Below are positions 27,073 through 63,993 of a DNA stretch of 64,000 nt, piece after piece. A program made the translations under genes and the position numbers. The stretch's first letter is position 1, and the number at the start of each line of letters is the position of its first letter. Origin of the DNA: a bacterium (GTDB taxonomy: Bacteria > Patescibacteriota > Saccharimonadia > UBA4664); the NCBI GenBank assembly GCA_016699105.1, contig CP064960.1, positions 968,729 through 1,032,728 on the forward strand, in the 5' to 3' direction. The notes beneath the pieces were generated by a model that worked only from the letters and a program-made list of their open reading frames with translations, was not told the origin of the DNA and made no database searches.

Positions 27073-27136
27073 ACAGATAAGTATACCGCATGAGGCGAAA
27101 GCGAACAAATACCGTATTATTGCTACTAATTAGAAT

Positions 27137-32002: not shown

Positions 32003-32646
32003 AATACCAAGGGTTAGTGCGCGCGTCTTTACTCGTTTTTACCAGTAGTGTCAGTACGATAATGTTTGTCGGTTTAGTATTGCAGCCTTCACCAGTACAG
32101 CTGGGATTGGGACTGGCTCCCGAAACGTTGGTTGAAGCCGGGTCGACTGGCATCACGCCGGCAAACTCGGAAACTGTACCGGCGGGGCAGACACCGATTA
32201 CTGCTACACCCACGCCAGTCGTTACATTGAAGCCAGGCCAAACAGCTACACCAGTCAGTAAATCAACAGCTACTACTGCCACCGCTACCCCTAAGCCAGC
32301 TGGCGGGACGACTACCACAACACCGAAGCCGGCTACACCGACACCAACGCCGGTTCCGGCCGGTCCAGCGTGCGGTAGTGCCAACGGTACCTGTACTGCA
32401 GCGCAGGTAGCTGCCCACAATAGCCGGACGAACTGTTGGATGATTTATAACGGTTACTACTACATTGTGACATCGTATGTGAACAGCCATCCGGGTGGAA
32501 CCTCGGTCTTCAACAGTAGTACCTGCGGCATCAATGCCACCGGCTATCTCAATGGCTCAACTTCGACAGGTGGCAAAAAGCACAACCATGGTGGCTCGAC
32601 GTACACCATTCTCAATTCGTACAAAGTCGGTCCTGTTCAGGGATGA
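31999..32646 (+). CDS. Membrane-anchored cytochrome b5-like heme-binding domain protein
   Basis: ATGA overlap with the upstream gene. N-terminal TM, Thr/Pro-rich linker, then a cyt b5 domain (VAAHNSRTNCWMIYNGYYYIVTSYVNSHPGG with the HPGG signature). Confidence 0.7.
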   Translation: MKYQGLVRASLLVFTSSVSTIMFVGLVLQPSPVQLGLGLAPETLVEAGSTGITPANSETVPAGQTPITATPTPVVTLKPGQTATPVSKSTATTATATPKPAGGTTTTTPKPATPTPTPVPAGPACGSANGTCTAAQVAAHNSRTNCWMIYNGYYYIVTSYVNSHPGGTSVFNSSTCGINATGYLNGSTSTGGKKHNHGGSTYTILNSYKVGPVQG

Positions 32647-33131
32647 AGCTCATTAAACGCAGGCAGGTAACTGCAATATTGGTATTGGTAGCATTGTTGG
32701 GTACGGCGACCGGTTGGCTGATCTATAGTCAGTGGTTGTATCGCCCCATTGTTACCCCCCAAACAACAGTTTCACCGCAGCCAAAATATGTGGCTAAAAT
32801 AATTTCGAGTCGCATCGACAATACTGGCACTGAAGTTTTTCGGCCCGGAGCCGGTTATCACTACGTCATTGTCGATGTTGAGATTACCAATTCTGATACG
32901 GCGGATTTAGCGCTGGCACCCGTCATTCAAACACATATTCAGTCGGCTACGGGCGAGCGTTTTGAGATGGCACCCGCACCTTTGGACAACCCGTTTGATG
33001 CTGGCGTACTGGCGCTTGGCCAAAGCCGACGGGGCGAGCTCAGCTACATCGTACCCGATGGGGTGACAGACACGCAATGGGTGTTTGAGCTAGGCGCTGG
33101 ATATGCGACGACTCGCGTCAAGCTGCCATAA
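32643..33131 (+). CDS. DUF4352-like membrane-anchored protein
   Basis: ATGA overlap with the upstream gene. N-terminal TM followed by a beta-rich domain (YHYVIVDVEITNSDTADLALAP). Confidence 0.55.
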   Translation: MKLIKRRQVTAILVLVALLGTATGWLIYSQWLYRPIVTPQTTVSPQPKYVAKIISSRIDNTGTEVFRPGAGYHYVIVDVEITNSDTADLALAPVIQTHIQSATGERFEMAPAPLDNPFDAGVLALGQSRRGELSYIVPDGVTDTQWVFELGAGYATTRVKLP

Positions 33132-39746: not shown

Positions 39747-40520
39747 TTACGAGGCCGTGGATTGGCCCGCAAGGGTTGATTCTCGCTCGAGTAGCAGATA
39801 TACCCAACGCGGGTAGTGCTCGCGAATGTTGCCACTGTCATCGAGCCTGGGCCGGGCAACCAGCTGAATAGTAGAGCGACTGACGCGCGGAAGTATCCAA
39901 TCATACGACCGTCCAATGAGATTGGCGATCGTCGTACCGGTAAGCATCTCACCGCCGGGCGGGATATACCGAGGGCGGACACCTAGTTTCTGCACGGCCT
40001 CCTCTCGAAGGTAATGATTGATGACATGGCCGTTGGCAATAGCGCGGAACTCGTGCGGCTGGATTCGGGCTTTACGTAGCCGCGACACGATAGTGCTACA
40101 GGCCCAACCCGTTTCACGCCGCAGATCCAATACAGTGACATATTCCGGTGGTGCCAGCGGCGGCATGAGCTGCTTGAGCTTGGTCACCGTTGTCCGCGGT
40201 ACCCCTATTACTTGCCGGTTTTGGGGCTGCGATAGGTTGTCACGCCGACCAAGTGATAGTGGTCGATGAGGATAATCAGATACTGCCGAGTACAGTTGAG
40301 CGCCGCCGCAGCTTGCGGAAGCGTGAAATTGCGTCCGAGCACTGGCAGGCGCATAAAAGCCTTTTTCAGCCCGTAGATGGGCGAGGGCTTCTGGCGAATA
40401 GATACCGTCGTCATCTGGAGCATACGCAACCAGACGGGCAGCTGCCCACTCGCGGCCACAACTAACTTCTCGAGCGAGCCCTTCTAGCGAAAAAGGTCGA
40501 GGTGCTACCACAATGATACC
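39747..40520 (-). CDS. Protein with three tandem excisionase/MerR-like HTH_17 repeats (one apparent frameshift)
   Basis: Repeats LPQAAAALNCTRQYLIILIDHYHLV, YVTVLDLRRETGWACSTIVSRLRKARIQP and LTGTTIANLIGRSYDWILPRVSRSTIQLV. The N-terminal piece is in another frame (40208-40459). Confidence 0.4.
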   Translation of the reverse strand, partial: GIIVVAPRPFSLEGLAREVSCGREWAAARLVAYAPDDDGIYSPEALAHLRAEKGFYAPASARTQFHASASCGGAQLYSAVSDYPHRPLSLGRRDNLSQPQNRQVIGVPRTTVTKLKQLMPPLAPPEYVTVLDLRRETGWACSTIVSRLRKARIQPHEFRAIANGHVINHYLREEAVQKLGVRPRYIPPGGEMLTGTTIANLIGRSYDWILPRVSRSTIQLVARPRLDDSGNIREHYPRWVYLLLERESTLAGQSTAS

Positions 40521-40575
40521 TCCAGGTCGAGTAGAGAGTGGATGAGCCGGTTATAGCATGTCTGATAGAAATAAG

Positions 40576-41022
40576 CTACTCGCCTGGCTCATTGAGTTTG
40601 TGCCGATACTCAGCGCGCGTGGCCCAGGCTACTAATTCCTCAATCTCTTGGGGCGACTCCGGATAGAACAATGGCAAGCCCTTAGCCAATGCCCAGGCCC
40701 GCTCGCGCTTGGCGCCGCTGGAGGTATGCCAGCGGGGCGTGAAGAGCACGGCGTCGGCTGCGTTGAGAAAATGAAAATCTAGGGCGTGATAAAAAGTCTC
40801 GTCGGCTTGGGCTTTGGTGCCAAAGTGGTGGGTGTGCAGATGCGGGCAAAAGAAGCCGATGCCGGCGTTGGCAAGGGCTATGGCGTAAGCCTCGGCGTCG
40901 CGGATGTTGGCCTCGATGGTCTCGATTTTGCCATCGCCAATGTAGGGCCCGGCGATGAAGACGATTTTCATCGGGCGAGAGCCGAGGGGTGCCCAGGGGG
41001 TGGTATCTGGAGGGGTGGTCAT
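40576..41022 (-). CDS. DUF4406-family protein (nucleoside 2-deoxyribosyltransferase-like fold)
   Basis: 149 aa from MTTPPDTT. MKIVFIAGPYIGDG is the DUF4406 N-terminal signature. Confidence 0.6.
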   Translation of the reverse strand: MTTPPDTTPWAPLGSRPMKIVFIAGPYIGDGKIETIEANIRDAEAYAIALANAGIGFFCPHLHTHHFGTKAQADETFYHALDFHFLNAADAVLFTPRWHTSSGAKRERAWALAKGLPLFYPESPQEIEELVAWATRAEYRHKLNEPGE

Positions 41023-41040
41023 GGGCAGATTGTAGCAGAT
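40905..41040. repeat. 137-bp direct repeat, copy A (DUF4406 5' end and upstream)
   Basis: Identical to 42130-42268 apart from G-run length differences. Confidence 0.8.
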
Positions 41041-41056
41041 AGCGCCATATTCAGAA

Positions 41057-42087
41057 CTACCCCCGCGGCTTTTTGGACTTGCTTTGTTGGCTAATTGCCT
41101 GCTCAAAGTCACCAACATACTCCAGGTCTTGCTGCGTGCGGAACTCGCTGTATTCCTGAATGGCCTTAGCGTCTGCCTGGGCCTTCGAGATTTTGCCGGC
41201 ATGTTTGAGCTTGGGATAATCATTCAACTCCAGGTAGCCGTCCATGATGCTGAGCCATTGAGCCATGGTTATGGGTAACCGACGGCTAGCACGGAGTTCA
41301 GCAGTATCCAGAAATGCCGACACCGCCAGCCGCAGGTGGTGGAGTTCAGCCTCGGTGAGGTAGTTTTTAGCGACGGTTACATCGGTACGCAGTACTTTGC
41401 CATCCGGTGCGAACTTCCAATTGGTTAGGCCCATGTGCGGTTTGGCGCTGCTGGACCGGTCATGTACGATTTCGGCTGCCGTGCCGCCGGCGACGGCGTA
41501 GTGAAGCTTGTTTTGGATGAAGGCAAAAAACTCTTTGGTCAGCTCGTTGGTTTTGTCATAGTCACTTGCAAGGGCAAAAATATCAGCGAGTTTGAGATAG
41601 ATACGGCGTTCACTGAGCCGGATCTCACGGACGCGCTCCAGGAGCTCGTCAAAGTAGTCTTTGCCAAAATGGGTGCCGTTTTTCAGGCGCTCATCGTCCA
41701 TAGCGAAGCCCTTAATGAGAAAATCGCGCAGAGTGACGGTGGCCCATTTACGGAACTGGGTACCTTCGAGAGATTTTACCCGATAGCCAACGGATATTAT
41801 TACGTCCAAATTGTAATAATTGGTGTCATACTGCTTGCCGTCGGCGGCAGTTGTCCGGAAATTCGGATTACTGCCGACTTATCGAGCTCACCTTCATCAA
41901 AAAGATTTCCGATATGCTCGCTGATGGTTTTCTTAGAGCGATTAAACAGCGCAGCCATTTTGTCTTGCGTGAGCCAGACAGTTTCGTCAGCGAAGAAGAC
42001 CTCGAGCTGAAGCTTGCCATCCGGGGCGGTATAAAACAGAAATTCGCCTTCGTGCGGGGCTAGCTGATTGTTGGTAGGCTTTCGCAT
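41057..42087 (-). CDS. RhuM-family virulence/defence-island protein (one apparent frameshift)
   Basis: N-terminal part ...ETVWLTQDKMAALFNRSKKTISEHIGNLFDEGEL, then (shift at about 41860, A run) DVIISVGYRVKSLEGTQFRKWATVTLRDFLIKGFAMDDERL. Confidence 0.8.
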
Positions 42088-42129
42088 ATTTCAATTATGC
42101 CGAACGGTTACCGTACATGCAAGACAATC

Positions 42130-42268
42130 TGTTGGCCTCGATGGTCTCGATTTTGCCATCGCCAATGTAGGGCCCGGCGATGAAGACGATTTTCATCGGG
42201 CGAGAGCCGAGGGGTGCCCAGGGGGGTGGTATCTGGAGGAGGGTGGTCATGGGCAGATTGTAGCAGAT
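42130..42268. repeat. 137-bp direct repeat, copy B (includes a truncated second copy of the DUF4406 start)
   Basis: Encodes MTTLLQIPPPWAPLGSRPMKIVFIAGPYIGDGKIETIEAN, then diverges. Confidence 0.8.
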
Positions 42269-42287
42269 TGGCTTATCTGGGGCTAAG

Positions 42288-42989
42288 TTAGCCGTGCCGC
42301 AACTCAAGCCGATCTTTGATTTCACGCCAACCCGGCAACTTTTGGTCGAGCAATGCTTTAAACTCGGACCCGTGGTTCTTAATAGTGAGATGACACAGCT
42401 CATGCACCATAACGTACTCGATCGCAGACTTATCTGACTCAATTAGTCGCGGGTTGACCACCACGTTTCCGGCGTTTGTGAAGCTACCCCATCGTTTCTG
42501 CATCTCTTTTACGATCAAACGAGGAGGCTCCACGCCATCGAAGTATCTTAGTGCTTTTGCGTAAACTTCACGAAATACGAAGTTGCGGCGATTTCTGTAC
42601 CAGCCTTCGATCAGCATTTTCGTATACTCGGGCATTTGTGCGCCCATTGATGTCGATACCCTAATCTTTCCTTTGAGTAGGCCGACGGAGTCCGTTTTGC
42701 CAGCTTCAACAATCAGTTCGTATTGCCGCCCGAGATACATGAGGCTTTCGCCTGAAACATACGATCTCTCGTAGCGCTTTTTGTGATACCGATCAAACAT
42801 CCGAAGCTGTTTATCGAGCCACCGCCACTTACTCTCAAGAAATTTTGTAATGCGCTCCTCGCCAGCATCATGAGGAGCCCTTAGTGTGATGGCTTGATCT
42901 GGCTCCACCGTAAGCCGGAGACTCTTCCGCGGCTCGTAAATGAGCTCGTACGAATATTCATACTGCCCATAACGAAAGACCCGTTTCAT
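42288..42989 (-). CDS. YgjP/DUF45 (SprT-like) metal-dependent hydrolase
   Basis: 233-aa ORF with HExxH (MVHELCHL). It is coupled to the 3' end of hsdR by a 4-nt overlap, its usual genomic context. Confidence 0.75.
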   Translation of the reverse strand: MKRVFRYGQYEYSYELIYEPRKSLRLTVEPDQAITLRAPHDAGEERITKFLESKWRWLDKQLRMFDRYHKKRYERSYVSGESLMYLGRQYELIVEAGKTDSVGLLKGKIRVSTSMGAQMPEYTKMLIEGWYRNRRNFVFREVYAKALRYFDGVEPPRLIVKEMQKRWGSFTNAGNVVVNPRLIESDKSAIEYVMVHELCHLTIKNHGSEFKALLDQKLPGWREIKDRLELRHG

Positions 42990-45900
42990 AGTTGGATGAA
43001 CACGTCGTGGTTGTTCTCTGCAAGTATCATGACATCGGTAATGATTGTTTCAATTTGGTCGTAGCTCAGGTCAATGCCCATCTTGCCCTTTACCTCGTCG
43101 TACAGATAGTCATCGAGAAGGCTGCGCATTTGGCGTTTGGTTTCATGGCTGTGCCACCAGTCAACTGTCGCGCTTTGCTGAACCATTTCGTTCATGCCTA
43201 GCACGGCCTGCTGATAAATTGCAGGACTAGATGCCCAGACCCCGAGAGTTGTTTCCAGGTTGCGGTAGAGAATGTCGGCACCCGGTTTGGCGGTAACTTC
43301 TGCTGGCAGCGAGTCGTCGCGCTTGCTCAGTACCGTATCACTTATGAGTCGCAGCTGTTTGAGCGCCTCGATGTCGGCGAGCTTTTTCTGGCGCATCTCT
43401 TCAATAATCTTTGAGATCTTTTTCGAGAATCTAGCATAGAACTCAGGATCGGTAGATAGCCGCTCGGTAATTGTCTTTTGGGTTTGGGCCGCAATAGCTT
43501 CAGCTTTCGACTTGTCAGACCCAAGCTCTGCAATAGCCTTCTCGAAGAGTTCTTTGTCCGTAATATCGATTTGTTCAGTGAGGAGCTCGGCTTCATCGGC
43601 CTTGATATTGTCATCCATAATCTTGATGAGCGCCAATTTGTAAGGCCGGAGATCGGTTTGGTCGGCGTAACGCAGATTAGCCGATTTACGTAGCTCGAGA
43701 AACTTTTTGCATTCGTCACGATACATATGCAGATGCGGGAATTTGGTCGCAAAATCCTGGAGCGTCATCGACTCGCCAAATAGCCGGATGAACTCGTTGA
43801 GAGCAAAAACGAATTGCTTACGCGTTGGCTCATCAGCCAAGAATTGTAGGTATGCCTCGTCGTCGTGAGCCACACCGTTAAATAGGTCGTGGAGCGCGGC
43901 GTAGGCTGACTCGAGTTCAATAATCTTGTCGCCGACATCGACCAATGCACCCTTTACGTCATTTTCATCGTAATTGCCAAACAACTGCATGGCCGTATGA
44001 ATGTTTTGGGCGTTCTCTGAGTAGTCGATGATAAACCCTGCCGTCTTGGGCAAGGTAGGGTTGTCATAGAGGCGGTTCACGCGAGCGATGGCTTGAAGCA
44101 AGTTATGATCGGTTAGCTCACGAGCCAGATACAGCACCGTATTACGCGGAGCGTCAAAACCGGTGAGGAGCTTATCAACCACGATCAGGATTTCGATACC
44201 GTCATCGTTATACTTGAAGCTATCCACGACATCCTTCTCATACGAAAGCAGGCTCTGATATTTCTCTTTAACGTCCTTGAGATAGTCGTCGACTTCTTTC
44301 TTGTGGTCGTCGCCTTCGTTGATGATGCCATTTTCATCCGAGATGACGAGCGCCGTATTGATGAGGCCGCTATCAGTAAAGAACTTCTGCATCATGACGG
44401 CCGAGAACTTTGACGGTGCCACGATCTGAGCCTTGAGGCCGGAGCCCTGTAGCTTATCAATGTAATGGCGTTGGATATCAAAGGCGATCTCGACGATGCG
44501 CTTCGGGTTATCTTTGATGACCCCCTGAGCTACTTGCTTCTGAAGCTGCCTCTTCTTTTCTTCAGATAACCCGGCGGTTAGGCGGTCAACGAGCCGGTCA
44601 ATTTCTTCTTTATCCTGCTTCAAATCAACATACCTGCCCTCATAGATAAGCGGCAAGATGATCTTGTCTTCCAGGGCATCGTCGATAGTGTACTTATCGA
44701 TGAAGTCACCGAACTTGCCACGTGAGCGCTCATTTTTGAGGAGCGGCGTTCCGGTAAAGGCGATGTAGCAGGCATTCGGTATCACGAGGTTCATTTCGCT
44801 GTTGGCGTCGCCGCCCTGGGAACGGTGAGCCTCATCAATGAGTACAAAGATGTTCTCGTCTGGGTCCTTAAACCCGGCGCGCTTGCGAGCGGCGGTCTGA
44901 AATTTATGCACGAGCGTCGTAACTATGCGTTTGTCTTTGAATTGAATGAGATCGAGCAGGTGTTCACCGCTCGTTGCCTGAATCACATCTTTCTTGAGGC
45001 CGGCATTATTGAACGTGCCCTTGATCTGACGGTCGAGATCTTTCCGATCGGTCACGATGATGATGCGGGGGTTCGTGATAGTACTGTCTTCAATGAGTGC
45101 CCGCACAAACATCACCATGGTCAGTGATTTGCCCGAACCTTGAGTATGCCAGACAATACCGCCCTGGCGGCGCTCCCTATTTCCAGCTGCTCAGTTTGCT
45201 TGATGCGCCGCAGAATTTTATGGATCGCAAAGTACTGCTGGTAGCGCATCACTTTCTTGGTGCCAGCATCATAAAGGATGTAGTTCTTGGCGATATCGAG
45301 CAGGCGGGCCTTGTCGAACATCGCGACAACGCTGCGGTCCTGGGCGGTTACTTCCCGCTCAAGTTTTTGGGTATAACCGAGTACCGATCCGTTGAGATCG
45401 GCCAGGAGATCAGAGTATGTGCTGGCCGGGATTGGTTGCGACATAAGCGCCCGCACGCGTCCATCCAGAACGCTATTCGGTGTATCCTTCTCGCGCCAGG
45501 TGGCGTAGAACTTGGCCGGGGTTCCGGTGGTGCCGTAGCGCATGTCTTTCCCGTTGGTGGCGATGAGCAATTGCGTGTAGATAAATAACCGCGGGCAGCG
45601 GTCGACGCTTTGGTTCCGAACCTGCTGATTCATAGCTTCATCAACTTCGACACTGGATTTTTTGTTCTCGATGATCACAAATGGTATGCCGTTCACAAAG
45701 CACACGATGTCGGGCCGAATGTTGCCCTTGCCGCTGGCAGGGTACTCAACGGTGACATGGAATTCGTTATTTTCTGGCATGTCAAAATCGATGAACCGGA
45801 AACTTTTGGATTCATACTTGCCGTCGAGCAACATCTTAATGGTGCGTCCGCCGCGAGTTGGCATGACGGTGTGATAGACGGTTTTTGAAGTGTCGACCAG

Positions 45901-46164
45901 GCCTTCAAACTGAAGATTTTCCAGCTCGTCGATGGCGTCATTGATATCTTTGTCGCTAAACTGGTGGAGCGCATCGGCGTGTTCGTAGCGATTGATCTTC
46001 ATGAGCGCGCGGGCGGCGATGTCTTTGAGAATGAAGTTTGAGGTATCATCGCCACGCTGACGGAGGGCCTCGCCGACCGGGATGTAGTTATAACCGAGGT
46101 TGATGAGCAGCTCGACGAATGGCAGCTGGGATTGCTTGGCCTCGTCGAAATTGATGTCATGCAT
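42986..46164 (-). CDS. hsdR: Type I restriction enzyme R subunit (one apparent frameshift)
   Basis: N-terminal nuclease-like domain (45121-46164, true start MHDINFDEAKQ) and SF2 helicase body (42986-45118, TGTPLL, VLIDEAHRSQ). They are separated by a missing A at about 45180 (expected ...EQLENRERRQGGIVWHTQGSGKSLTMVMF). Confidence 0.9.
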
Positions 46165-47387
46165 GGGTGGGTTCCTTTGCGAGAGGCTTGAGGGTTTCGG
46201 GCACGCGGATTTTGCCAGTGACGAGGTTGTTGAGGAGGTATTTACGCTGAGTTTTGATGATGGCGAGCTTGCGCTCGAGGGTGGTAATTTCGTCATCAAC
46301 GGCAGTCAGAATTTGGGCGATTGCAATTTGCTCTTCGGGTTCGAGGGGAACATAAACATCTGCATCAAAGAAATCAACCGCACTTATATTCAGCAAGCCG
46401 TGGTTTCGCGCCCCTTCCTGTGTAACCGTGGATAAAACCTTGTTGAACAGACCCTGCTCAAAGTAGTGCTGAAGGTAGTCTGATTCAATTCGGGTCGGTG
46501 TAAACGCTAAATAGAGTGTTGATACCGCTCCTTTTTTGTACGCGTTTAGTCTTTTTATAGCACCCATCGGGTAGCCTTTTGAATAACTCTTATTGTAAGC
46601 GAACTCGCCATTGTGCAAGAGCAAATAGCCTGACAGGTCAATGGCGGCTATGCGTTTAGAAAAATATTCCCCTTGTGCAACCAATCCATCTTGTGCCGAT
46701 ATAGTGAGCGCATTCTGGTTTAACTCGCTGTTTTTTCTATTGATTCTCGTACAAACCTCACCCAGTTTCAGGCTCCCCCAGTTTGACCGAAACCCTGGTA
46801 GCCTTATTGCCCCCGTAAGCAGCCCTTCCGCTAGACCATCTTTTAACCGCCTTTTTACTCTGATCGTCACCTGCGACACATTAATTAACTTGTCGCAAGT
46901 CTCTAGCATTGCGACTATACGCTGTTGTACGGGTATAGGTGGAGTCAGAATTTGTAAATCCTTGATCGATTGCAAAAGAGATTTTTATTGTTGAACCAGT
47001 GAGTTCATCAAGCAATCTGGCCCTAGTCTGATCGCATAAAAGAAAATAGTATAAGTATTTTCTTTCTAGGTCGTCTGCACAGTTGATATATGCAGCGCTT
47101 TTCCCGAGTACAATTTGTTCGCCATTGTAAAGCGCAAGACTACCAATCGTGCCATTGATTGACATCAGAATGGTAGAGCCATCAAGGAGCTTCTTATGTT
47201 TTTCGTATTCATTGAGATCAACCTCCTTTGTGCTCCGGCTAATTCGTATCTCTCCGTCAACCAAATTATTGCCGTTGATGAAGAAAATGCCCGTACCGGT
47301 GCTATATTTTGGCGTGCCATGAATACCATCACTAATCTTAGTCGTGATGTCCTTAAGCTTCCACAACCGGTTGGTGTCATTTGCCAT
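46157..47387 (-). CDS. hsdS: Type I R-M specificity subunit (one apparent frameshift)
   Basis: TRD1 (46881-47387) and conserved repeat/TRD2 (46157-46975; ...LQILTPPIPVQQRIVAMLE..., C-terminal ...PLEPEEQIAIAQIL...). The junction is at about 46975 (T run). It overlaps the hsdR start by 8 nt. Confidence 0.85.
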
Positions 47388-47829
47388 CTTTGTCTCGTTT
47401 TTCTACGGCAGTTTTGGCATCATCGGGCAAAGCGTCATATAACGCCTCGATTTCTTTAGGCTCGGTAATTAGTTTTTGAGCGATAAAATTTATCAGGCTG
47501 AATAACGCTACTACCTTAGCTGGATCCTCATCTAAATTGATCTCGCCCGGGTGAACGGCGTTATTGCCCGTAATACGCAGCGCGTCCAATGCCTTCTGAA
47601 TAGTCGGGCTTAGTCCGGCATTCACAAGTTCTGCAATATCATCATTGATGTTCTTGCCTTTCTGTCCAAGTTGAACACAGAGCTTTTGGAGCCCTAGACG
47701 CAATAATGCGGCGGCTGCACGAGGCGAGTCGGCCAGTACCTGAGCGGCTTCATTGTAATCAGCCTGAATATCGGGGTTCAGGTCTCCATTCGGCTGGTCA
47801 ACCGTAATGCTTCGAGGCAAAACTAACAC
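47377..47829 (-). CDS. DUF4145 domain protein (RM-associated)
   Basis: 150-aa ORF with a DUF4145 pattern (RAAAALLRLGLQKLCVQLG). It overlaps the hsdS start. Confidence 0.65.
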   Translation of the reverse strand: MLVLPRSITVDQPNGDLNPDIQADYNEAAQVLADSPRAAAALLRLGLQKLCVQLGQKGKNINDDIAELVNAGLSPTIQKALDALRITGNNAVHPGEINLDEDPAKVVALFSLINFIAQKLITEPKEIEALYDALPDDAKTAVEKRDKDGK

Positions 47830-48075
47830 CTCATTTAGCCAAATACAGTAACCACTACAGTGCTCACACTTTGAAAACTACATATTGTTCAGGAAGTAAT
47901 TCGCTAAACTCGCTTGACCCATAAATATTTGATCGGGTGCCCCTGTGAGGTCTTGAGTAGCCATCAGATGAAGCCGTAAGGTGGGACCAAAATTGCTTTG
48001 CAAAGACCCCGCATACGCCACAGTGGAACGCAGCGACGCTAAAGCCGGGGGCTATATATTCATTTCTCGCCATGG

Positions 48076-48879
48076 CTACTCCCCCAACGATTCTTCTTGA
48101 TTTTGCTTCTTAATACGAGTCTTCGCCTTATTTATGCCATCGGCAACAGGCAAATTCTCGGGCATAGTGCCGCCCAGTTGGTCGATGGTTTGGCGAACTT
48201 TTTGGCCGACTTCGTAGTGGGCAAGGTTTGCCTCGGCTTCGCCCTGAATGCCCTCGCGCTTGAGCTTGGCGTCGGCCTGAGTGGCGCGAAAGAGGTTGGC
48301 AGCCAGTTCTTCGCTACCCATATGGTCGAGAATTCCTTGGGATTTTTTGAGCTGCTTCTTCTTATGGATTTGTTGGGCGGTCATCTTATATAGGCCTTTA
48401 TAACCAGCATTCTGGAAAGTGCCAAAGTTTGATACTCCAGCCTTTTTGGCAGAACTCGCAAGTGAGGCGTTGTGTACCGAAATTTCATCTCGAAGCACTA
48501 CTCGCTTGCCGTCTTCGACGAGAGTATCACTGTCTTCTTGACGCTTGGTTTGGATAGCGAAGTAGGTTTGACCGAGCGCTACCACCTCTTTAGTCGGGTC
48601 GGAGTTCTGTATTATCAAATAGCAGGCGTAGCGACTAAGTTTTACGTCATCGATCTCGCGCTGTGCGCCCGAGCCAAGGACTACCATTTCGAGAATATCC
48701 TCGAAATGGTCGTGGACAACTTGACCACTGTTTTTGGCGGACTCTTTGGCTTTCGTGATTACTGGCAAGAAGTGACGGTATTCGGAGTAGCCAAGAACCT
48801 TACATAAATCTCGCGCCATCCAGTATTCGGCTTGGCTATAATCGACCAGCTTAATTTCTTCAAATACCGTGATGTTCAC
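48076..48879 (-). CDS. dinD: DNA damage-inducible protein D-like
   Basis: 267-aa ORF with strong similarity to the DinD N-terminal region (FEEIK...YWMARDLCKVLGYSEYRHFLPVITKAKESAKNSGQVVHDHFEDILEMVVLGSGAQREIDDVKLSRYACYLIIQN). Confidence 0.75.
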   Translation of the reverse strand: MNITVFEEIKLVDYSQAEYWMARDLCKVLGYSEYRHFLPVITKAKESAKNSGQVVHDHFEDILEMVVLGSGAQREIDDVKLSRYACYLIIQNSDPTKEVVALGQTYFAIQTKRQEDSDTLVEDGKRVVLRDEISVHNASLASSAKKAGVSNFGTFQNAGYKGLYKMTAQQIHKKKQLKKSQGILDHMGSEELAANLFRATQADAKLKREGIQGEAEANLAHYEVGQKVRQTIDQLGGTMPENLPVADGINKAKTRIKKQNQEESLGE

Positions 48880-49073
48880 TGCCTACCCCCTAACTGTATG
48901 CTTAATGTACCGATTGTGGCTCTGTATAGCGCTGATACCATTTCGAGGAGATGCTCGAAATGGTTGTGGAAAACTATCTTAACCGCATCGAAATCGATGC
49001 GGTTACTAGATACTAATTTCATGAGTATAGCAACGTGCAATTCTTGCATGTTACTCGTCTCGTACGGATTCAT
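48876..49073 (-). CDS. Small ORF containing a diverged partial duplicate of a dinD internal segment
   Basis: 65 aa, overlapping hsdM and dinD by 4 nt each. HFEHLLEMV matches dinD HFEDILEMV, and the DNA segments are about 80% identical over about 45 nt. Confidence 0.35.
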   Translation of the reverse strand: MNPYETSNMQELHVAILMKLVSSNRIDFDAVKIVFHNHFEHLLEMVSALYRATIGTLSIQLGGRQ

Positions 49074-50584
49074 GATTTAATCCCCAACTGCTTCAAATAA
49101 TCGTCCATCTGGGCTTCCAGACGGGCTAGCTCGGGCTTGAGGGCTTCGAGCTCTTTGATGGTGGCCTGGATGTCGATTTCGGCTTCTTCCACAAAGGTGT
49201 CAACGTAGCGGGTGATGTTGAGGTTGAAGTCGTTTTCCTGGATTTCGTCGAAGGTGGCGACATGGGCGAATTTGTCGACGTCCTTGCGCTCTTTGAAGGT
49301 ATTGAAGATAGTGTCGATGTGCTCAGGCTCGAGGGTGTTGCGGGCTTTGCCGGGTTTGAAGAGCTTGGAGGCTTCAATGAATAGCACATCCTTTTTGTCG
49401 TGGTTGGCACCACCAACTTCGCGGGAGCGGTCGATTACCAAAATAGCGACAGGGATGCCAGTGGTCTGGAATAGGCCGGCCGGTAGCCCAATGACAGCAT
49501 CGATGATGTTTTCGCGCAAGAAGGCTTCACGGATTTTACCTTCCACGCCGCCCCGGAAGAGCACACCGTGTGGAACAATGACTGCAATGCGGCCGGTCTT
49601 GGGCTTGGCGGTTTCCACCATGTGCGTCACGAAAGCGTAGTCACCTTTGTCCTTGGGCGGGATGCCACGCCAGAAGCGCTTGTACCGGTCGTCTTCGGCA
49701 TTTTCGGCACCCCATTTCTTGAGCGAGAAGGGCGGATTGGCCACACAGATATCAAACTTCATGAGGCGATCATTTTCGACGAAGAGCGGATTGTTGAGAG
49801 TGTCGCCCCATTCCAGGTGTGCGGAGTCTTTGCCGTGGAGGAACATGTTCATGCGAGCCAGCTGGTAGGTGCTGCCGGTTGATTCCTGGCCATAGAGGGC
49901 ATAGTTATTGGAGCCCTGCTTTTCGACTTCGGCGCCAGCGAGCAGCAAGAGGCCGCCACTACCGACGGCCGGATCGCAAATGCGGTCGCCAGGTTTGGGC
50001 TGAGCCAACCGTGCCACCAATGACGCCACGCTTTTGATCGTGAAGAACTCACCAGCCTTCTTGCCGGCGTCGGCGCCGAACTTATCAATGAGGTACATGT
50101 ACGAGTTGCCAATGACGTCTTCATTGATGTGGGCGAGATCAATGGAGTTGAAGTCGTCGAGCAAATGGCGGAGCATCTTGTTTCGCTGCTCGAGCCTGCC
50201 GAGCGTGGACTCAGAGTTGAAGTCGACGCTGAAGACGCCTTCAAGCTTGGCTTTGTTAATATCCTCGATGCGGTGCAGGGCCTTGTTGATTTCTTCGCCG
50301 ATGTTGTCTTCATCTTTCTTGGCGTAGACGTAGTCAAAGGTGGCTTCTTCTGGCAAGTAAAACCGCTCGGTTTTCATCTTGTTGGCAATGCGCTCGGTGT
50401 CGCCGCCGAAGCGATCTTTGTAAACCTCATACTGCTTTTTTGACAGATCACTGAGGTATTTAAAGAACAACATCGTGAGCACGTAGTCTTTGTAGATACC
50501 GGCATCGAGGGAGGTGCGGGACGAGTCGGCCGCATTCCAGAGTATGTTATTGAGCTCTTCTTGGGTGTAGGTTCTGGCGGTCAT
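49070..50584 (-). CDS. hsdM: Type I R-M N6-adenine DNA methyltransferase subunit
   Basis: 504-aa intact ORF with an HsdM N-terminal domain, SAM motif and catalytic NPPF (ANPPFSLKKWG). Confidence 0.92.
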   Translation of the reverse strand: MTARTYTQEELNNILWNAADSSRTSLDAGIYKDYVLTMLFFKYLSDLSKKQYEVYKDRFGGDTERIANKMKTERFYLPEEATFDYVYAKKDEDNIGEEINKALHRIEDINKAKLEGVFSVDFNSESTLGRLEQRNKMLRHLLDDFNSIDLAHINEDVIGNSYMYLIDKFGADAGKKAGEFFTIKSVASLVARLAQPKPGDRICDPAVGSGGLLLLAGAEVEKQGSNNYALYGQESTGSTYQLARMNMFLHGKDSAHLEWGDTLNNPLFVENDRLMKFDICVANPPFSLKKWGAENAEDDRYKRFWRGIPPKDKGDYAFVTHMVETAKPKTGRIAVIVPHGVLFRGGVEGKIREAFLRENIIDAVIGLPAGLFQTTGIPVAILVIDRSREVGGANHDKKDVLFIEASKLFKPGKARNTLEPEHIDTIFNTFKERKDVDKFAHVATFDEIQENDFNLNITRYVDTFVEEAEIDIQATIKELEALKPELARLEAQMDDYLKQLGIKS

Positions 50585-51150
50585 TTGATGGCTCCTTCGA
50601 TTGCGGTGAGCGATTGGTTAAGTATTGATTGGCTGAGAGCGGTTTTTCGTTCAAGGATGGCTCGTTGGCGCATCAAGTTTTGGTGTAGCGCGACGTAGAG
50701 CGCTTGGCGGTCGAGCGGAATATCGGGAACCGGGAGCTGGCGGAGAGTATCAATGAGGAGGGTCTTGATGGATGAGCCGGTAGAGTTTTGGGCGAAGTAG
50801 GCTTGGGCGGCGGGACTATTAAGATGTATTGCCAAATACTCTGGTAAAAGACGGCTCTCATCGGGTTTCATTATGTAGAGCGATGAGCTGGCAATTATCG
50901 GCTCGTCGCAGTTTAACGCGGCGGCACGAAAGCTACCGCGAGCTGCGAGTAAGACAACCATGCCGGTTTCTGGTGCTGTGCGGTAGTCTGCGCCCGTTAC
51001 CCGCGGAAGGCTCTCTAGTTCGACGCCGACGGCCGTCACATCTTTTGATTGGGCTACGCGAACATCTCCAGCAGGGTCATGAAGCACCGGGCCACGGAAG
51101 GTGTAGCCGGATTGGAGCTTGAGTATGAGTTCGTGTAGCTGCGTGGTCAT
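50581..51150 (-). CDS. HsdS-like single-TRD half subunit
   Basis: 189-aa ORF: one target-recognition domain plus the conserved HsdS repeat (SSIKTLLIDTLRQLPVPDIPLDRQ). 4-nt overlap with the hsdM start. Confidence 0.6.
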   Translation of the reverse strand: MTTQLHELILKLQSGYTFRGPVLHDPAGDVRVAQSKDVTAVGVELESLPRVTGADYRTAPETGMVVLLAARGSFRAAALNCDEPIIASSSLYIMKPDESRLLPEYLAIHLNSPAAQAYFAQNSTGSSIKTLLIDTLRQLPVPDIPLDRQALYVALHQNLMRQRAILERKTALSQSILNQSLTAIEGAIK

Positions 51151-51224
51151 ACAAGGAATGTATCACACTATTTGTACATTTGCAACTGCGCACTGACTGC
51201 TACTGTAGCATATCTACTGGATAT

Positions 51225-51425
51225 CTATGACTTCCACTTACCAAACCGCTTCATCACCCATTGGATTGTCGGCAGGATGTAGTAAACGTCGTCTGAATTC
51301 CGAATGTCAAATCGACTTACCGGTGTATTGTAATGCTCGAAGCTATTAGGCATGTAGGTAATGCGGCCGTCGGGATCCATAATATCGACGTCCTCAGGGC
51401 GAATGCTCGGGATTTCAATTGTCAT
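51225..51425 (-). CDS. Small hypothetical protein (66 aa), translationally coupled to the upstream nuclease gene
   Basis: 4-nt overlap with the 51422-52179 gene. No family recognised. Confidence 0.4.
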   Translation of the reverse strand: MTIEIPSIRPEDVDIMDPDGRITYMPNSFEHYNTPVSRFDIRNSDDVYYILPTIQWVMKRFGKWKS

Positions 51426-52179
51426 TTTTGGTTATGCGGCTTGATATAGATGACCGTACTAGCGCCATTCTCGCCAAGAGCTAAACCGATGTGACCCGAG
51501 CGCGGGTTTTCCTTGATGCGCTCATCGATCATCATGAGGCGGTCGCACAGTTCTTCGTAGATTGGCAGCCATTCAGCTTTGGCGCCGGTGAAGTGATCGG
51601 CGACGGTGTACTTTTTGACCTCTTTACTAACCTCATTGATGGTCTGGCTTTTCTTGGAAATCGTGTTGATCGACTCGCTAGAATCCGGGGTTTTGAGGCG
51701 ATTAAACAGTACTGTGTCGTTGCTGTAATATTTGGCTTCCCAGAGCTCCATCGGCAGATCGCGGAAGTTGATGGCTTGCTGTTGGTAGGTGGTGAAGGAA
51801 TTAGCCACAAAGATTACCCGCGACTGCGACCAATCAACGTCGGTTTTGCCGAGGTGCTTGGACATGTGCTCGTTGTATTCAAGGATGAAATCGGCTTTAT
51901 GGTTGAGCATGAGCGAAAGGTAGGCGTAGCCCTGATCAACCACGCTAAAGCTGTGATCGCGCTTGTACTCAATGATTACAAAGGCTTTGGCCTCGGCATC
52001 GAAGGCCAGCGTGTCGACGCGTAGGCCGTTGAGCTGGAATTCGGTGGTCACAAATATAAGGCCAAAGACAGCTTCAAGATTGGCTTCGGCGAGGCGCTGG
52101 AGATCGCTTTCCTTGTACGATTTGGGATTGAGCTCGTTGATGGAGGTGAGCTTGTTCTGGTGGCGGAGAAGATTGGCAT
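51422..52179 (-). CDS. HsdR_N-like PD-(D/E)xK nuclease-domain protein (one apparent frameshift near the start)
   Basis: About 252 aa. ...SDLQRLAEANLEAVFGLIFVTTEFQLNGLRVDTLAFDAEAKAFVIIEYKRD matches the HSDR_N/Mrr-cat D...(D/E)xK pattern. The C-terminal domain is unrecognised. The start atgcca(a)atc lacks an A at about 52173. Confidence 0.55.
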
Positions 52180-52220
52180 GATACAGCGTATTTTACGCTC
52201 GACTTCAGGTCGAGGCTAGC

Positions 52221-52814
52221 TTATATTTTCTCGGCGAGCTTCCGAATTGGCTGCAGTTTGGCCTTACTCCCCTCATCAAGCATCGCAAACTCAATGTACC
52301 TGATCTTGTTCATTGTTGCTTCTTCACCCACTACACTATCAAGGATCAGGAAGCCTAGCCCAGCATATCGCTCCTTGGCCGCATCATCATAATCTGGAAT
52401 ATATATGACAATGTCTAAATGCTCATTGTCTCGCTCACTTGTGAAATACACATCCTCAACCAACATATTGTGGCCGTCATAGGTAAAAGAATCTGTTGAG
52501 ATGGGCGGCTTGAAGGCCGTGATTTTCCAGCCAGGAATGCTTGGAGCCGCCGCCACCATCTCGCGTACTCGGTCGGCATATGTCCGAACCCCGTCACACG
52601 ATACAAAGAACTCGCGCGCACCCTCTCCTAGCGGGCCGATAAGGAAGCACAGGTATTTGTCCGTTTTATCAAATTGCTTTGCGAGTAGCCCAATCAGCCG
52701 ATCCTGATCATTCTCTAGCTGGCTGTATTCATCCGCATGCTGCGCGAACCAAGTCCAAAATTCCGCATAAGTCATAGCGCGGCGTTTAAATATATTCATG
52801 AGAACATCATACAT
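52221..52814 (-). CDS. Hypothetical protein (possibly DUF695-like)
   Basis: 197-aa intact ORF immediately downstream of the Fic gene. Confidence 0.3.
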   Translation of the reverse strand: MYDVLMNIFKRRAMTYAEFWTWFAQHADEYSQLENDQDRLIGLLAKQFDKTDKYLCFLIGPLGEGAREFFVSCDGVRTYADRVREMVAAAPSIPGWKITAFKPPISTDSFTYDGHNMLVEDVYFTSERDNEHLDIVIYIPDYDDAAKERYAGLGFLILDSVVGEEATMNKIRYIEFAMLDEGSKAKLQPIRKLAEKI

Positions 52815-52961
52815 GAGACACTAGCCTCAACGGAGCCCCCACATACCAAACCCACCAACCACCAAATTACATCTCATCTCCGGCGACGGGTTGTGGGCAA
52901 AGAAGGCGCGGCAGGTGACGCCCGACGACACGCACATACAGGTGGACGCGCTCAGAATTCG

Positions 52962-53654
52962 CTAGCGCCCAATCTTCCAAACCCCCTTCTCCCGGAAGGC
53001 CGGGATGGTTTGGCGGCGGGCGGCGTTGAGCAGGGTGCTGGTTGACTGGTCAGTGGATTTTGCATAGTCGGCTAGGTCGATAATTTCGAGCCCTTTGAGA
53101 TATGCCAGGCGCTTGTGCAGAGACTCTATCAAGGCCAACGAGAGGGTGCGGTCAAGTAGTGTTGTTTTGCGGTCATCCTGGTAGGCCTGGAAGGCCGGGT
53201 AGTAGTGGTCGGCTTTGCCCTTATTGCGAATGATGAGCTGGGGATAGCCGAGCTTGGTGAGCTGGAGATTGATGAGCACGCGGCCAATCCGGCCGTTGCC
53301 ATCGCAGAAGGGGTGGATTCGCTCAAACTCAAGGTGAAAGATTGAAATGCGCTCAAGGAAGTATCGGGTATGCTCAGAGTCGTAGTCGGTGATGGCGCTT
53401 TCGATGAGCTGCTCGACGTGTTCGGGAGCCGGCGCGATGTGCGAACCTACCCGAACGTACTCGTGCTGTTTGCGGAAACGACCGGCAATTGCGTCGTCGA
53501 TGCCGCCAATCTGCATTTGGTGCAACAGGAGCATGTTCTCGGGGTTAAACTCGATGTCAGGTTTGCTGGCAAGGTATTCCGACACGCGAGCTAAGTTTTT
53601 AGCCTCGTATAGCTCCCGCGTAGACACGCTCCGCATAACTTGCTGCTCAAGCAA
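52962..53654 (-). CDS. Fic/Doc-family protein
   Basis: Fic motif HPFCDGNGRIGR. Confidence 0.85.
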   Translation of the reverse strand: MLEQQVMRSVSTRELYEAKNLARVSEYLASKPDIEFNPENMLLLHQMQIGGIDDAIAGRFRKQHEYVRVGSHIAPAPEHVEQLIESAITDYDSEHTRYFLERISIFHLEFERIHPFCDGNGRIGRVLINLQLTKLGYPQLIIRNKGKADHYYPAFQAYQDDRKTTLLDRTLSLALIESLHKRLAYLKGLEIIDLADYAKSTDQSTSTLLNAARRQTIPAFREKGVWKIGR

Positions 53655-53873
53655 AATGCGCTCGGTTTCCTTTTATATCAAGGATTATATGTCAATGTAC
53701 CCGTTAATATTGTGTGTTTTATGAACAAATTAACGGTCTTGAATCGAGTGGCCTATCTCGGTATATTGAGTGTACAAATGGGTTTCGACCTCGCCCCCGT
53801 ATCCAGCAATGGTGCGGGGGAGCAATTTTTATCGACCTTTCAGTTATCATATAACTCAACGGAGCCCATACAT

Positions 53874-54453
53874 GTCTAATAAACCCGATGACTTTCTAAC
53901 CCTTACCTTCGCCACCCCAGCAGTATGGGAGGCCTGGCTGGCCAAAAACCATGCCACGTCTACTGGGCTGTGGCTCAAGATTGCCAAGAAGGCCTCGGGT
54001 GTGGCGTCGGTGACCTATGATGAAGCGCTGGCTGTTGCGCTGTGTTATGGCTGGATTGACGGCCTCAAGCGCACGTATGATGCCACCTATTTTATCCAGC
54101 GGTTTACGCCGCGGCGGGCTCGGAGCATCTGGAGCAAACGCAATATCGGCAAAATTACTGAACTGACGGCGGCGGGGCGAATGCAACCGGCGGGACAGGC
54201 TGAGGTAGAACGGGCGCAGGCCGATGGCCGATGGGCGGCAGCCTATGATTCGCCGGCCAATATGGAAGTGCCAGCCGATTTTGTGGCGGCAGTCGAGCGC
54301 AGCCCGGTGGCAGCAGCCACCTTTGCGAAATTGAGCCGGTCTAATCTGTATGCCATTGCTTGGCGGTTGACTACGGTTAAGACGGCGGTGGGGCGGCAGA
54401 GGCGATTTGATGCATTATTAGCTATGCTCGAGCGGGGCGAGACGATTCATTAG
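53874..54453 (+). CDS. YdeI/OmpD-associated family protein
   Basis: 193 aa from MSNKPDDF. YdeI-like pattern (LWLKIAKKASGVASVTYDEALAVALCYGWIDG). GC-rich. Confidence 0.55.
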
Positions 54454-54509
54454 GTATAAAGGGGTGTACCGGCCGCCGAACCTCTGGTGAGGAACGACGG
54501 CCGGGTGGG

Positions 54510-56221: not shown

Positions 56222-56264
56222 GAAGATTAGGCCCTGTTATTCTGGGGCCTTTGCTGTGGTGAAC

Positions 56265-57028
56265 TAATTCGGGCGCAGGGTGCCGGCAAACACCTGCCAA
56301 GCCAGCAATGATTTAGCTACTAAACTCAGGATAATGTAGGCACGCTCACCGTAGAGATAGTTTTCCAAGGGCCGATTTTACGGTATTGCAGCACCATATT
56401 GACGGCAAACGCATTGAAGAACACAAAGATGGAAACGTAGATCCAGTAAACGAAAGTCGGGGGTTTGGAGCCATAGGCGGCGGCCGCCAGAAAGTAGGCG
56501 CCGATGACGAGCCAGGGCACAATACCGAGCAAGCACCCAATCCAATAGCTGAGCCAATTGGTACGCTTAGTAGTTTGGTTATGGACTTCCATGACCAATC
56601 CCATGAGATTCATACCCGCGGTGAGGGCAAATATCATCGCTAATGACGAGGCGTCATACACACCCACCAGTAAAGCGATGGCTACCATCATAGTGCTAGC
56701 AGACAAAGAGTACTCGATCCAACGTGCGCGGTTGATGCCGTCCTTGAGATCAGCTTCGTAGCGGCGGCGGTAGACAGTCACAATGGTGAAATGAGCCAGT
56801 GCCGATAGCGCAAAAAGCCCGCGACTAAGGGCGCTAGGGGCATTCGCCCAGCTGGCGGGTGGCGGTATCGAGGCTTTGGGTGGCGGGATTAAAGACCAGA
56901 TATGGCATGTTGACTGGCAAGCGGAAGTCTTTTGCCAGGGCCAGTACGGCGGCGGCTTGGAATAAATGCAGGACATAGGCGAACCAGTTAAGGCGATTCA
57001 AACTCATGAGCGAAATTGATGATGTCAT
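56265..57028 (-). CDS. Heliorhodopsin (two apparent frameshifts)
   Basis: Seven-TM protein with the heliorhodopsin signature throughout. N-terminus NRLNWFAYVLHLFQAAAVLALAKDFRLP. Middle: SALSRGLFALSALAHFTIV...ARWIEYSLSASTMMVAIALL...WIGCLLGIVPWLVIGAYF. C-terminus YGERAYIILSLVAKSLLAWQVFAGTLRPN, where K in LVAKS is the retinal Schiff-base lysine position. Frame junctions at about 56848 (extra G) and about 56362 (A run). Confidence 0.8.
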
Positions 57029-57153
57029 ATGTAAAGTTTAGCATAAGCGGTATACGTTTTCGGAAATTATATTTACAAATAAGCCTTTATATATCATAAT
57101 TTCTCAATCTGTAACACGAGTTACAGATATTCCCGGCTGAAGGGACAACTCAA

Positions 57154-58356
57154 GTGAGATCTCTCCGTTGGTTGGTAACCTCGGTAATTGCAGCGATTGT
57201 GCTCTTGTTCGGCAGCAGCTCGGCCTATGCCGCACCGCATGCCAGCATCGACAGTGCAACTATCGAGAAGAGCGTCGTCTCTCTGACGATCAATTGGTCC
57301 GGCAAGGTTCGTTATCCCACTAATAACAATGGTGAAGACGTCACTGACGCCATCGACCTCAAGGGTCATTGTACAGGCTTCTTTGTCTCCAAAGACGGCG
57401 ATATTGTAACTGCTGGCCACTGTGTCGATCCTGAAGAGGTCAAGATCAGCTTCATCAATGCGGCTATCAAGCATCTACAGGAAGACGGACGACTGACCGG
57501 CACGATCGACAAGGACTATATTTACCAGAACTGGACACCGGAAGGTGCTAGCAAGGGTTCTCAGCCCCTCGTGCAGGTCCGAGTCAGCCAGGCTGATGAC
57601 GTAAATGCGCCTGTATCGATGAATGACCGGCCGGCTCAGATCATTGCGGTCGACCCGTCAAACCAGGGTGATGTCGCGCTACTCAAGCTGTCAGGCGTCA
57701 CCGGGACTGTTCCCCTGGCTGTGGCAGCCCAGGCCCCCGCCATCGGTACACCCGTGACATCGGTGGGTTTTCCGGCGATTCTCAACACGGAGCAGGATGT
57801 ACCGAATCAGCGGGCCAGCTTCAAGTCTGGTGAGGTGAGCTCTGTCCAGACGACGGATGACGGTATTCCGCGTATCGAGGTCAGTTCCGAACTGAGCCAT
57901 GGGATGTCTGGCGGGCCGACCGTAGATTTGGCCGGCAACGTTGTGGGTGTCAACTCGCGCGGGTTCACATCTACGGGACAAGGTGCATTCAACTTCATCA
58001 CCGATCCGGGACGACTCACTTCCTACCTGACGGCGCATGGCGTGACGGCGAACGCGCCGCGAGCGACTGTGGCACCATCAGCATCGGGCCAGGCGTCACC
58101 CGGTCCCGTAGTGTCAGTTGCACCTGTCTCGTCCGATAGCTCTCCGAGCGGGGCAATGATTGCACTCGGTGTCGTCGTCGTGCTCGCTGCAATTGGCGGC
58201 GGGTTGTTCTTTCGGAATCGACAGGCTCGACCGGCACCGGCAGCTGTTGTATCGACGCCAGTCGCCAGCGGTACCGCTCTGTGCTCCTATGGTCACTTCA
58301 ACCTAGTAGGCGCTCAATTCTGCAGCACCTGCGGCACGGCACTGAAGACAACGTAG
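57154..58356 (+). CDS. Secreted, membrane-anchored S1 (trypsin-like) serine protease with cytoplasmic zinc-ribbon tail
   Basis: Signal peptide. Catalytic His (TAGHCV) and Ser (GMSGGP). Ser/Pro linker, C-terminal TM (IALGVVVVLAAIGGGLFF), then a CxxGH...CxxCG motif (CSYGHFNLVGAQFCSTCG). Confidence 0.7.
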   Translation: MRSLRWLVTSVIAAIVLLFGSSSAYAAPHASIDSATIEKSVVSLTINWSGKVRYPTNNNGEDVTDAIDLKGHCTGFFVSKDGDIVTAGHCVDPEEVKISFINAAIKHLQEDGRLTGTIDKDYIYQNWTPEGASKGSQPLVQVRVSQADDVNAPVSMNDRPAQIIAVDPSNQGDVALLKLSGVTGTVPLAVAAQAPAIGTPVTSVGFPAILNTEQDVPNQRASFKSGEVSSVQTTDDGIPRIEVSSELSHGMSGGPTVDLAGNVVGVNSRGFTSTGQGAFNFITDPGRLTSYLTAHGVTANAPRATVAPSASGQASPGPVVSVAPVSSDSSPSGAMIALGVVVVLAAIGGGLFFRNRQARPAPAAVVSTPVASGTALCSYGHFNLVGAQFCSTCGTALKTT

Positions 58357-62755: not shown

Positions 62756-63665
62756 CTATATATGAGTTCTGTCATCTGAACGCGGGTCGCTTACCAGCGT
62801 CCCACTATGGAGAACTCCAGATATTACGTTGCCCCTCCATGCGACAGTTGAATCATAAAACTCATCGTCGGTATCGATGGTCGAAATTAGCACACCCTGT
62901 TCGTTGCGCGCAACCTGGCCCGTAAATATGCCATCAGGCTGTACAAAGAAGCTTCCCAGAGGCTTTCCTTGGCCGAAGAGTTTGGGCAACTAATGTACAT
63001 GTAGTTATTCGAGGACGAAGCGTGCATAGCAGCAATTTGAGTAATACCGGCAACGGTTGGATTTCCGTTAAGTTCAACGTCACCAATCTCAGTCCTTGAT
63101 GCTTCGAGTCGTTCCGCTGGCCAATGTGCTGCGTGGTATGAGTGGAACATGAGCTGAACGCCTAGGCGTTTGTATTCCCGGTACAGTTCCGGGTAACGAT
63201 AGTCGTGACAAATGAGCGTCCCGCACTGTACGCCCTTAATTCTAAATACACAAAATGATCACCCGATGTATAGTGAGCTAAATCACCTGTTTTTGAGTCT
63301 TTGTCACCGGCACAAAACCTCTTATCGTATCTATCTACGATTTGGCCGCTATCATCGATGATATACAGGCTATTGTGCGGCTTATTGGTCCCCGATAAAC
63401 GATGTGTTGAGCCAAGAATCACCCAAATCTCCAGCTCCTTGGCTAATTGCATGACCTGTACGGTGCTCTTTTCGAGTTGCCCCCAATCGAAGCCCTCGTA
63501 AGATTCCATATCCGCACCAGCATACCCAGACAGTCCACACTCAGGAAAATGAGCCACATCGGCGTTTTGCTGCTTGGCTTTCCGCAGTAAATCTGCAATA
63601 CACCGCTCGTTATTCGTGATATCCGAGCTAGTCGGGAATTGGCATGTGGCTATGGTGAGTTTCAT
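62756..63665 (-). CDS. Carbon-nitrogen hydrolase (nitrilase superfamily; two apparent frameshifts)
   Basis: Catalytic E (HFPECGLSGY), K (RYDKRF) and C (TLICHD). C-terminal motif FVQPDGIFTGQVARNEQGVLISTIDTD. Junctions at about 63235 and about 62950. Confidence 0.75.
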
Positions 63666-63672
63666 TGTGTAA

Positions 63673-63993
63673 TTATATCACCTGAGGGCTCATATGAACT
63701 GCGTCAACCCTCATCTTCGTCCTCCGGCGCCTGCACTTCCTCCCAAATCTTTCCGTCATCCCCTGTGCCTTGAACTTCTCAGCCGTCGTGAACCACATCG
63801 TGATGTCTTCGCCCCACTTTTCCTCAAGCAGCCGCTTAGTAGCTCGCTTGCAGTAGGTTAGATCAGTGAGTATAGGGCACACAACCATGACGATTGGGTT
63901 TGGTTCGTCCTCACTGGTTTCATCCTGCCAATACCCGTCTTCCAGATACTCAATGTAGTTCTTGAGGCGCTTCCGCACCCTGTGGCGGGGCAT
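63673..63993 (-). CDS. Hypothetical protein
   Basis: 106-aa ORF. Its stop lies 8 nt upstream of the CN-hydrolase start. Confidence 0.35.
   Translation of the reverse strand: MPRHRVRKRLKNYIEYLEDGYWQDETSEDEPNPIVMVVCPILTDLTYCKRATKRLLEEKWGEDITMWFTTAEKFKAQGMTERFGRKCRRRRTKMRVDAVHMSPQVI

Follow-up and report, generated by a model that had tools for sequence, protein, structure and literature searches.

The described systems closest to the gene studied here are TaHeR, a heliorhodopsin (HeR) of a Thermoplasmatales archaeon (PDB 6IS6/7U55), 48C12, the founding member of the family (PDB 6SU3/6UH3), the HeRs catalogued in Saccharimonadia (Chiriac et al., 2022; PMC9166423) and the SacR type-1 rhodopsins of Saccharibacteria (Jaffe et al., 2022; PMC9296517). 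Glutamine synthetase, photolyase and ABC transporters are known targets of regulation by characterised HeRs (PMC11109279), and a role in the oxidative-stress response has been proposed for HeR in freshwater CPR bacteria (PMC9166423). When 1326 CPR genomes were screened, HeRs were found predominantly in Saccharimonadia (80 occurrences), and SLVAK was among the commonest motifs in the HeRs of that class, the genomes of which are reduced (Chiriac et al., 2022; PMC9166423). The SacR proteins are outward proton pumps of normal topology; the rhodopsin-bearing Saccharibacteria lack blh, and host-derived retinal has been proposed for them (Jaffe et al., 2022; PMC9296517). The source organism of TaHeR is also without a retinal pathway, and TaHeR is described as binding external retinal rapidly (PMC9296517).

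The window, that is, the whole 64,000-nucleotide stretch that was analysed, carries a HeR gene on the minus strand at 56264-57028. This is very probably a normal, functional gene of Saccharimonadia (Saccharibacteria/TM7, Patescibacteria), the breaks in which are under-called bases and the product of which would be a sensory HeR supplied with external retinal. Read directly, the gene starts with an ATG at 57028 and ends with a stop codon at 56266-56264; it has 255 codons once repaired and is split over three pieces of reading frame in the unrepaired sequence of the window. The initial annotation had placed it at 56265-57028, which locates the gene correctly and stops one base short of the last base of the stop codon.

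Membership in the family was established with profiles and structures. The window HeR matched PF18761 (Pfam) over profile positions 1-242 of 242 at 307.8 bits (cut-off 26.7, E=6e-92) and the NCBIfam equivalog 'heliorhodopsin HeR' (NF038020) over positions 1-244 of 244 at 320.8 bits (cut-off 100). A sequence search of the PDB returned heliorhodopsins only, among them TaHeR (6IS6, E=3e-76) and 48C12 (6SU3, E=1e-57). A structure was modelled with AlphaFold (AF2) for P0001, a protein that differs from the repaired HeR at one residue; the model was built on 32 relatives (mean pLDDT 88, pTM 0.84) and has seven long helices and the AB-loop beta-hairpin typical of HeRs (strands 36-47 and 52-64). Seven hydrophobic segments were also counted in the HeR sequence itself, in keeping with the seven helices first reported for this gene. 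With the P0001 model as query, Foldseek placed TaHeR first (TM 0.92, rmsd 1.7 Å over 249 columns, 52% identity), followed by 48C12 (TM 0.87; 44% identity), and type-1 rhodopsins reached a TM of at most 0.66 at 7-17% identity. The original assignment to the heliorhodopsins thus holds, on the full-length profile matches, the TaHeR-like fold of the model and the key residues given below. Classification as a type-1 microbial rhodopsin was rejected: Bac_rhodopsin (PF01036) gave no match to the HeR at E<=0.01, the lysine stands in an SxxxK and not a DxxxK motif, and the fold is distant, as the TM values show. By the same measures the protein differs from the SacR rhodopsins. No second rhodopsin was found in the window (Pfam scan of 100 ORFs).

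Residues H21, H80, E106, S236 and K240 are invariant among the 32 relatives. By alignment, H21, H80, E106 and K240 correspond to H23, H80, E107 (the counterion) and K241 of 48C12. The codon of the Schiff-base lysine, read directly at 56312-56314 on the minus strand, encodes K240 of the repaired protein within the motif S236-L-V-A-K240 and aligns with K238 of TaHeR; the lysine context ILSLVAKSLLAWQVF was found in the window HeR. The repaired protein keeps K240 and aligns within the heliorhodopsins, and neither loss of the lysine nor a position outside the family, both named beforehand as grounds for refutation, was observed. With TaHeR the protein shares the histidine pair, the glutamate counterion, the SxxxK lysine and the AB-loop beta-hairpin; it differs in having a Patescibacterial and not an archaeal host and in four extra residues in the E-F loop. 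48C12 belongs to a more distant clade and has other loop lengths. Lysine and arginine residues of the repaired protein were counted by eye, giving about 13 in the N-terminus and the B-C, D-E and F-G loops and about 5 in the A-B, C-D and E-F loops and the C-terminus. By the positive-inside rule this distribution favours the inverted topology, with a predicted cytoplasmic N-terminus and the C-terminus outside.

The Saccharimonadia HeRs of Chiriac et al. (2022; PMC9166423) are of the same class and family and carry the same SLVAK motif. The repaired window HeR was absent as an exact sequence from the protein collection searched. The matching public protein record has no more of this allele than a 64-aa fragment, QQR52164.1. 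That NCBI entry ('hypothetical protein IPG36_06375 [bacterium]') is identical to the first fragment of the window gene, including the 'CP' tail produced by the frameshift, and the window very probably derives from its record, in which it is the sole HeR product. The gene is recorded there as a mere fragment, very probably because homopolymer errors split it.

The breaks were located by DNA alignment of the window to two independent contigs, L001 (ENA, 8 kb) and L002 (Logan, 4 kb), which encode HeR proteins 97-98% identical to the window HeR. Two homopolymer frameshifts had been reported in the initial annotation; the alignment instead revealed three 1-bp deletions, all in runs of one base. The first is at 56842, where the window has A and both contigs AA on the plus strand (GAATTG to GAATG on the gene strand); the second is at 56812-56816, with A5 in the window and A6 in both contigs (T6 to T5 on the gene strand); and the third is at 56361-56364, with T4 in place of the T5 of both contigs (A5 to A4 on the gene strand). 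The first piece of the gene, in frame A, ends in TRQLGECP and a stop codon, the short stretch PLAPLVAGF is readable in the third frame only, the long middle piece uses the second, and the last piece, NYLYGERAYIILSLVAKSLLAWQVFAGTLRPN followed by the stop codon, is back in frame A. Restoration of the three bases yields a 255-aa protein that is one residue off P0001 (K152Q).

These breaks are very probably homopolymer under-calls of an error-prone assembly, and not mutations or a feature of the gene, as judged from comparison of the aligned sequences. The window and L001 share 7686 bp at 98.4% identity, and all seven real indels between them (at 56842, 56812-16, 56361-64 and about 54457, 52887, 52164 and 51424) are deletions in homopolymers of the window. 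Real mutations would not all run in one direction, which argues that the deletions in the HeR gene are errors; several of the seven, moreover, sit where the two sequences are free of substitutions. With 3 indels in 765 bp, the gene is somewhat richer in indels than its surroundings, which average about 0.9 per kb, and comparable to dnaE, for which at least five frame changes are needed in 3.6 kb. Programmed frameshifting was considered and rejected, as the sites share no common slippery-site logic, the relatives have plain ORFs and unrelated genes are broken likewise.

It is very unlikely that the gene is a genuine pseudogene, with three true 1-bp deletions, in a strain that no longer senses light. 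Such a reading would fit the sequence as given, which is broken at three places within 765 bp, and the first frameshift, which affects a mere two-base run (TT to T) and is less typical of homopolymer error. Set against this are the one-directional indels described above, several amid otherwise 100% identity, and the state of the essential genes dnaE, rplS and gatA, which are broken alike in a manner that a living cell could not tolerate. Furthermore, between the repaired gene and that of L001 there are 26 synonymous nucleotide changes and 1 non-synonymous change, a ratio that indicates continuing purifying selection, and five near-identical HeR proteins are intact in ENA and Logan assemblies (P0001, P0122, P0123, P0124 and P0125).

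Damage of the same kind was seen elsewhere in the window. In a syntenic relative (L083), DnaE (1205 aa), GatA (481 aa), L19 and a DUF2130 protein are each encoded by a single ORF; in the window, this DnaE was matched by six pieces that partly overlap and occupy three frames, L19 by three pieces, the DUF2130 protein by three and GatA by two. NusA, PepN, HsdR, HsdS and a CN-hydrolase were likewise split across ORFs of the window (Pfam scan). Single-base frameshifts pervade the window, at 9400-27100 and also, for example, at 4110-5430, 5846-8469, 42989-47400 and 62890-63677, and the pattern of split genes fits about 0.7-1 homopolymer indel error per kb.

The HeR gene is divergent from a gene on the plus strand at 57154-58356 that encodes a 400-aa trypsin-like serine protease (Pfam Trypsin_2, E=4.6e-21; Trypsin, E=1.5e-11). 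Direct reading of the protein gave a signal peptide at the N-terminus, a transmembrane anchor at the C-terminus and a Cys-rich tail, and the description of this neighbour as a divergent, membrane-anchored serine protease is supported by the Trypsin_2 match and the anchor. The two start codons are separated by an intergenic region of 125 bp (57029-57153, sequence read directly), the length given at the outset.

It was considered whether the two genes form a functional unit, with a shared control region, a palindrome as operator and light sensing tied to a surface protease. Their divergent arrangement only 125 bp apart would suit this reading, as would a perfect 9-bp palindrome that lies just past a promoter-like site; chance would produce only about 1.4 such repeats in the whole 64 kb. 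Such a unit is nevertheless highly improbable. The protease adjoined HeR in none of 80 related Saccharibacteria-type loci examined by tblastn: it was absent from 79, and the remaining one gave only weak, trypsin-like similarity at 27% identity. The two closest strains have an intact HeR but a protease gene that is interrupted past about codon 64 by a piece of an IS481-family transposase. The ten groups of recurrent HeR neighbours that have been described also include no proteases (PMC11109279), and the palindrome faces the promoter of the protease and not HeR. The pairing of the two genes is without detectable meaning and is not conserved across the loci compared. The narrower proposal, that HeR and protease are co-regulated via the shared 125-bp region, with the palindrome at the transcription start of the protease as a putative operator, is extremely improbable; if true, co-regulation would put a surface protease that serves the interaction of episymbiont and host under the influence of light or retinal status, and it would constitute a new class of HeR output.

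The junction of the interrupted protease gene corresponds to window position 57346 and is identical in the two independent assemblies (L001 1-316 and L002 1-18). The interrupting transposase gene is itself truncated, covering positions 70-180 of 284 of the NCBIfam profile, and a transposase remnant 44-48% identical to it lies in the window at about 29950-30260.

Within the intergenic region, a sigma-70-like promoter match faces the protease on the plus strand at 57072-57100 (TTTACA, a 17-nt spacer and CATAAT; 10 of 12 positions, a consensus match only). A promoter scan of the same region returned no sigma-70-like site for HeR. The palindrome, at 57107-57128, reads ATCTGTAAC-ACGA-GTTACAGAT, with arms at 57107-57115 and 57120-57128; an inverted repeat upstream of the protease had been noted before, and the repeat is real, its arms being of 9 bp with a 4-nt spacer and not of 7 bp with a 5-nt spacer. 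It starts 7 nt past the -10 hexamer and ends 25 nt before the start codon of the protease; its association is with the protease, not with HeR. The idea of an operator with a regulon was checked by a search for further copies, and none besides 57107-57128 was found in the window with 2 mismatches allowed. As RNA the palindrome, a potential 5' hairpin, folds with z=-2.6. The promoter-like site is bracketed by another inverted repeat, GAAATTAT / ATAATTTC at 57063-57070 and 57096-57103, the 8-bp arms of which are separated by 25 nt.

At its other end the HeR gene converges on a gene for a 329-aa protein, and the 42-bp gap between the two stop codons contains a GC-rich hairpin (AGGCCC...GGGCCU, 56229-56250; fold -10.4 kcal/mol, z=-1.7), possibly a bidirectional terminator. 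A consensus terminator scan called no terminator downstream of HeR, this hairpin included.

The best named relatives of both HeR and the housekeeping protein GatB were from Candidatus Saccharimonadia, Saccharibacteria or Patescibacteria, and, among GTDB species representatives, the best 80 of 571 HeR-related stretches were almost all from Saccharibacteria. No rRNA or tRNA was found in the window (Rfam and tRNA scans). The housekeeping context first ascribed to the gene is present at 1-27 kb, with radA, clpC, nusA, pepN, rnhB, rplS, dnaE and gatCAB, and does not extend to the immediate surroundings of HeR. By Pfam scans, the region at about 39-54 kb is variable and includes type I restriction-modification, RhuM, a YgjP-like peptidase, Bro-N and Fic, and HeR lies between this variable region and a few strain-specific, hypothetical genes.

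Other features of the window were recorded as follows. A defence and mobile-gene island on the minus strand at 39750-49000 contains hsdR, hsdS, hsdM, RhuM, a YgjP-like metallopeptidase, DUF4145 and Bro-N, and is followed by a Fic protein at 52962-53654. The plus strand at 30638-33128 encodes, in this order, a membrane protein that resembles ferric reductases and carries FAD- and NAD-binding domains, a secreted Thr/Pro-rich protein with a C-terminal cytochrome b5-like haem-binding domain and a DUF4352 protein. Such a redox module is unexpected for a reduced genome. The divergence of the window from L001 is a mosaic, with stretches of zero substitutions (e.g., 50250-54000) and patches of 25-44 substitutions (49500-50250, 54000-54500 and 56250-56750); one of the patches is confined to the 3' half of HeR, where nearly all the substitutions are synonymous. 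Such a mosaic suggests homologous recombination between strains.

A search for a conserved partner of HeR was made by clustering the ORFs within +/-5 kb of the gene in 79 related loci, and none was found, the largest cluster being present in 12 of the 79. The neighbours in these loci included ABC transporters (12), response regulators (7) and histidine kinases (6), none of which adjoins HeR in the window.

For the supply of retinal, every stop-to-stop ORF of 60 aa or more (100 in total) in these 64 kb of a genome of roughly 1.3 Mb was scanned with Pfam for the families BCD/Blh, RPE65, Lycopene_cycl, Amino_oxidase, SQS_PSY and polyprenyl_synt. Blh/BCD, lycopene cyclase, phytoene desaturase, phytoene synthase, polyprenyl synthase and RPE65 were all absent from the window, in agreement with the earlier statement that it holds no retinal-biosynthesis genes. 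A self-sufficient rhodopsin photosystem (opsin with blh and crtEIBY) was rejected for this locus, as neither carotenoid nor retinal genes lie within the 64 kb. Both the window and, by the literature, Saccharibacteria generally are without a retinal pathway, so that the chromophore would come from outside, most plausibly by uptake from the host or the surrounding community. Scavenging by a host-dependent lineage, as proposed in the initial annotation, is a reasonable reading of the lack of retinal genes in the window and of the affiliation of the nearest HeR and GatB relatives with Saccharimonadia and Saccharibacteria. The SacR-bearing Saccharibacteria likewise depend on external retinal, which HeR reportedly binds rapidly (PMC9296517).

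By inference from the family, the HeR apoprotein would insert with its N-terminus inside, and all-trans retinal, taken up from outside, most plausibly from the host or the community, would bind covalently at K240 with E106 as the counterion. By analogy with characterised prokaryotic HeRs, green light would then drive a slow photocycle that alters the interaction with a partner protein and pumps no ions. Ion transport is said to have gone undetected for the prokaryotic HeR group in the work of Pushkarev in 2018 and Shihoya in 2019. That the protein is an energy-conserving ion pump and not a sensor or regulator is extremely improbable, since, although proton transport is known for some HeRs of viruses (cited in PMC11109279) and Saccharibacteria use type-1 rhodopsins as proton pumps (PMC9296517), the window HeR falls in the prokaryotic group, at 52% identity to TaHeR, lacks the type-1 DxxxK motif and is unmatched by Bac_rhodopsin.

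For annotation, the value of the locus lies in the fact that the errors that split HeR also hit essential genes across the window. With essential genes broken in this way, conclusions on gene content drawn from the assembly, including claims of a 'missing pathway', need polished sequence. The presence of HeR in Saccharimonadia and the scavenging of retinal have already been published (PMC9166423; PMC9296517), and nothing substantially new is added to either. The weight for the biology of the lineage is small, as the commonness of HeR in Saccharimonadia was already known and the dependence of rhodopsin-bearing Saccharibacteria on external retinal already proposed; the gene has been identified correctly, and it is an ordinary one in an assembly rich in errors.
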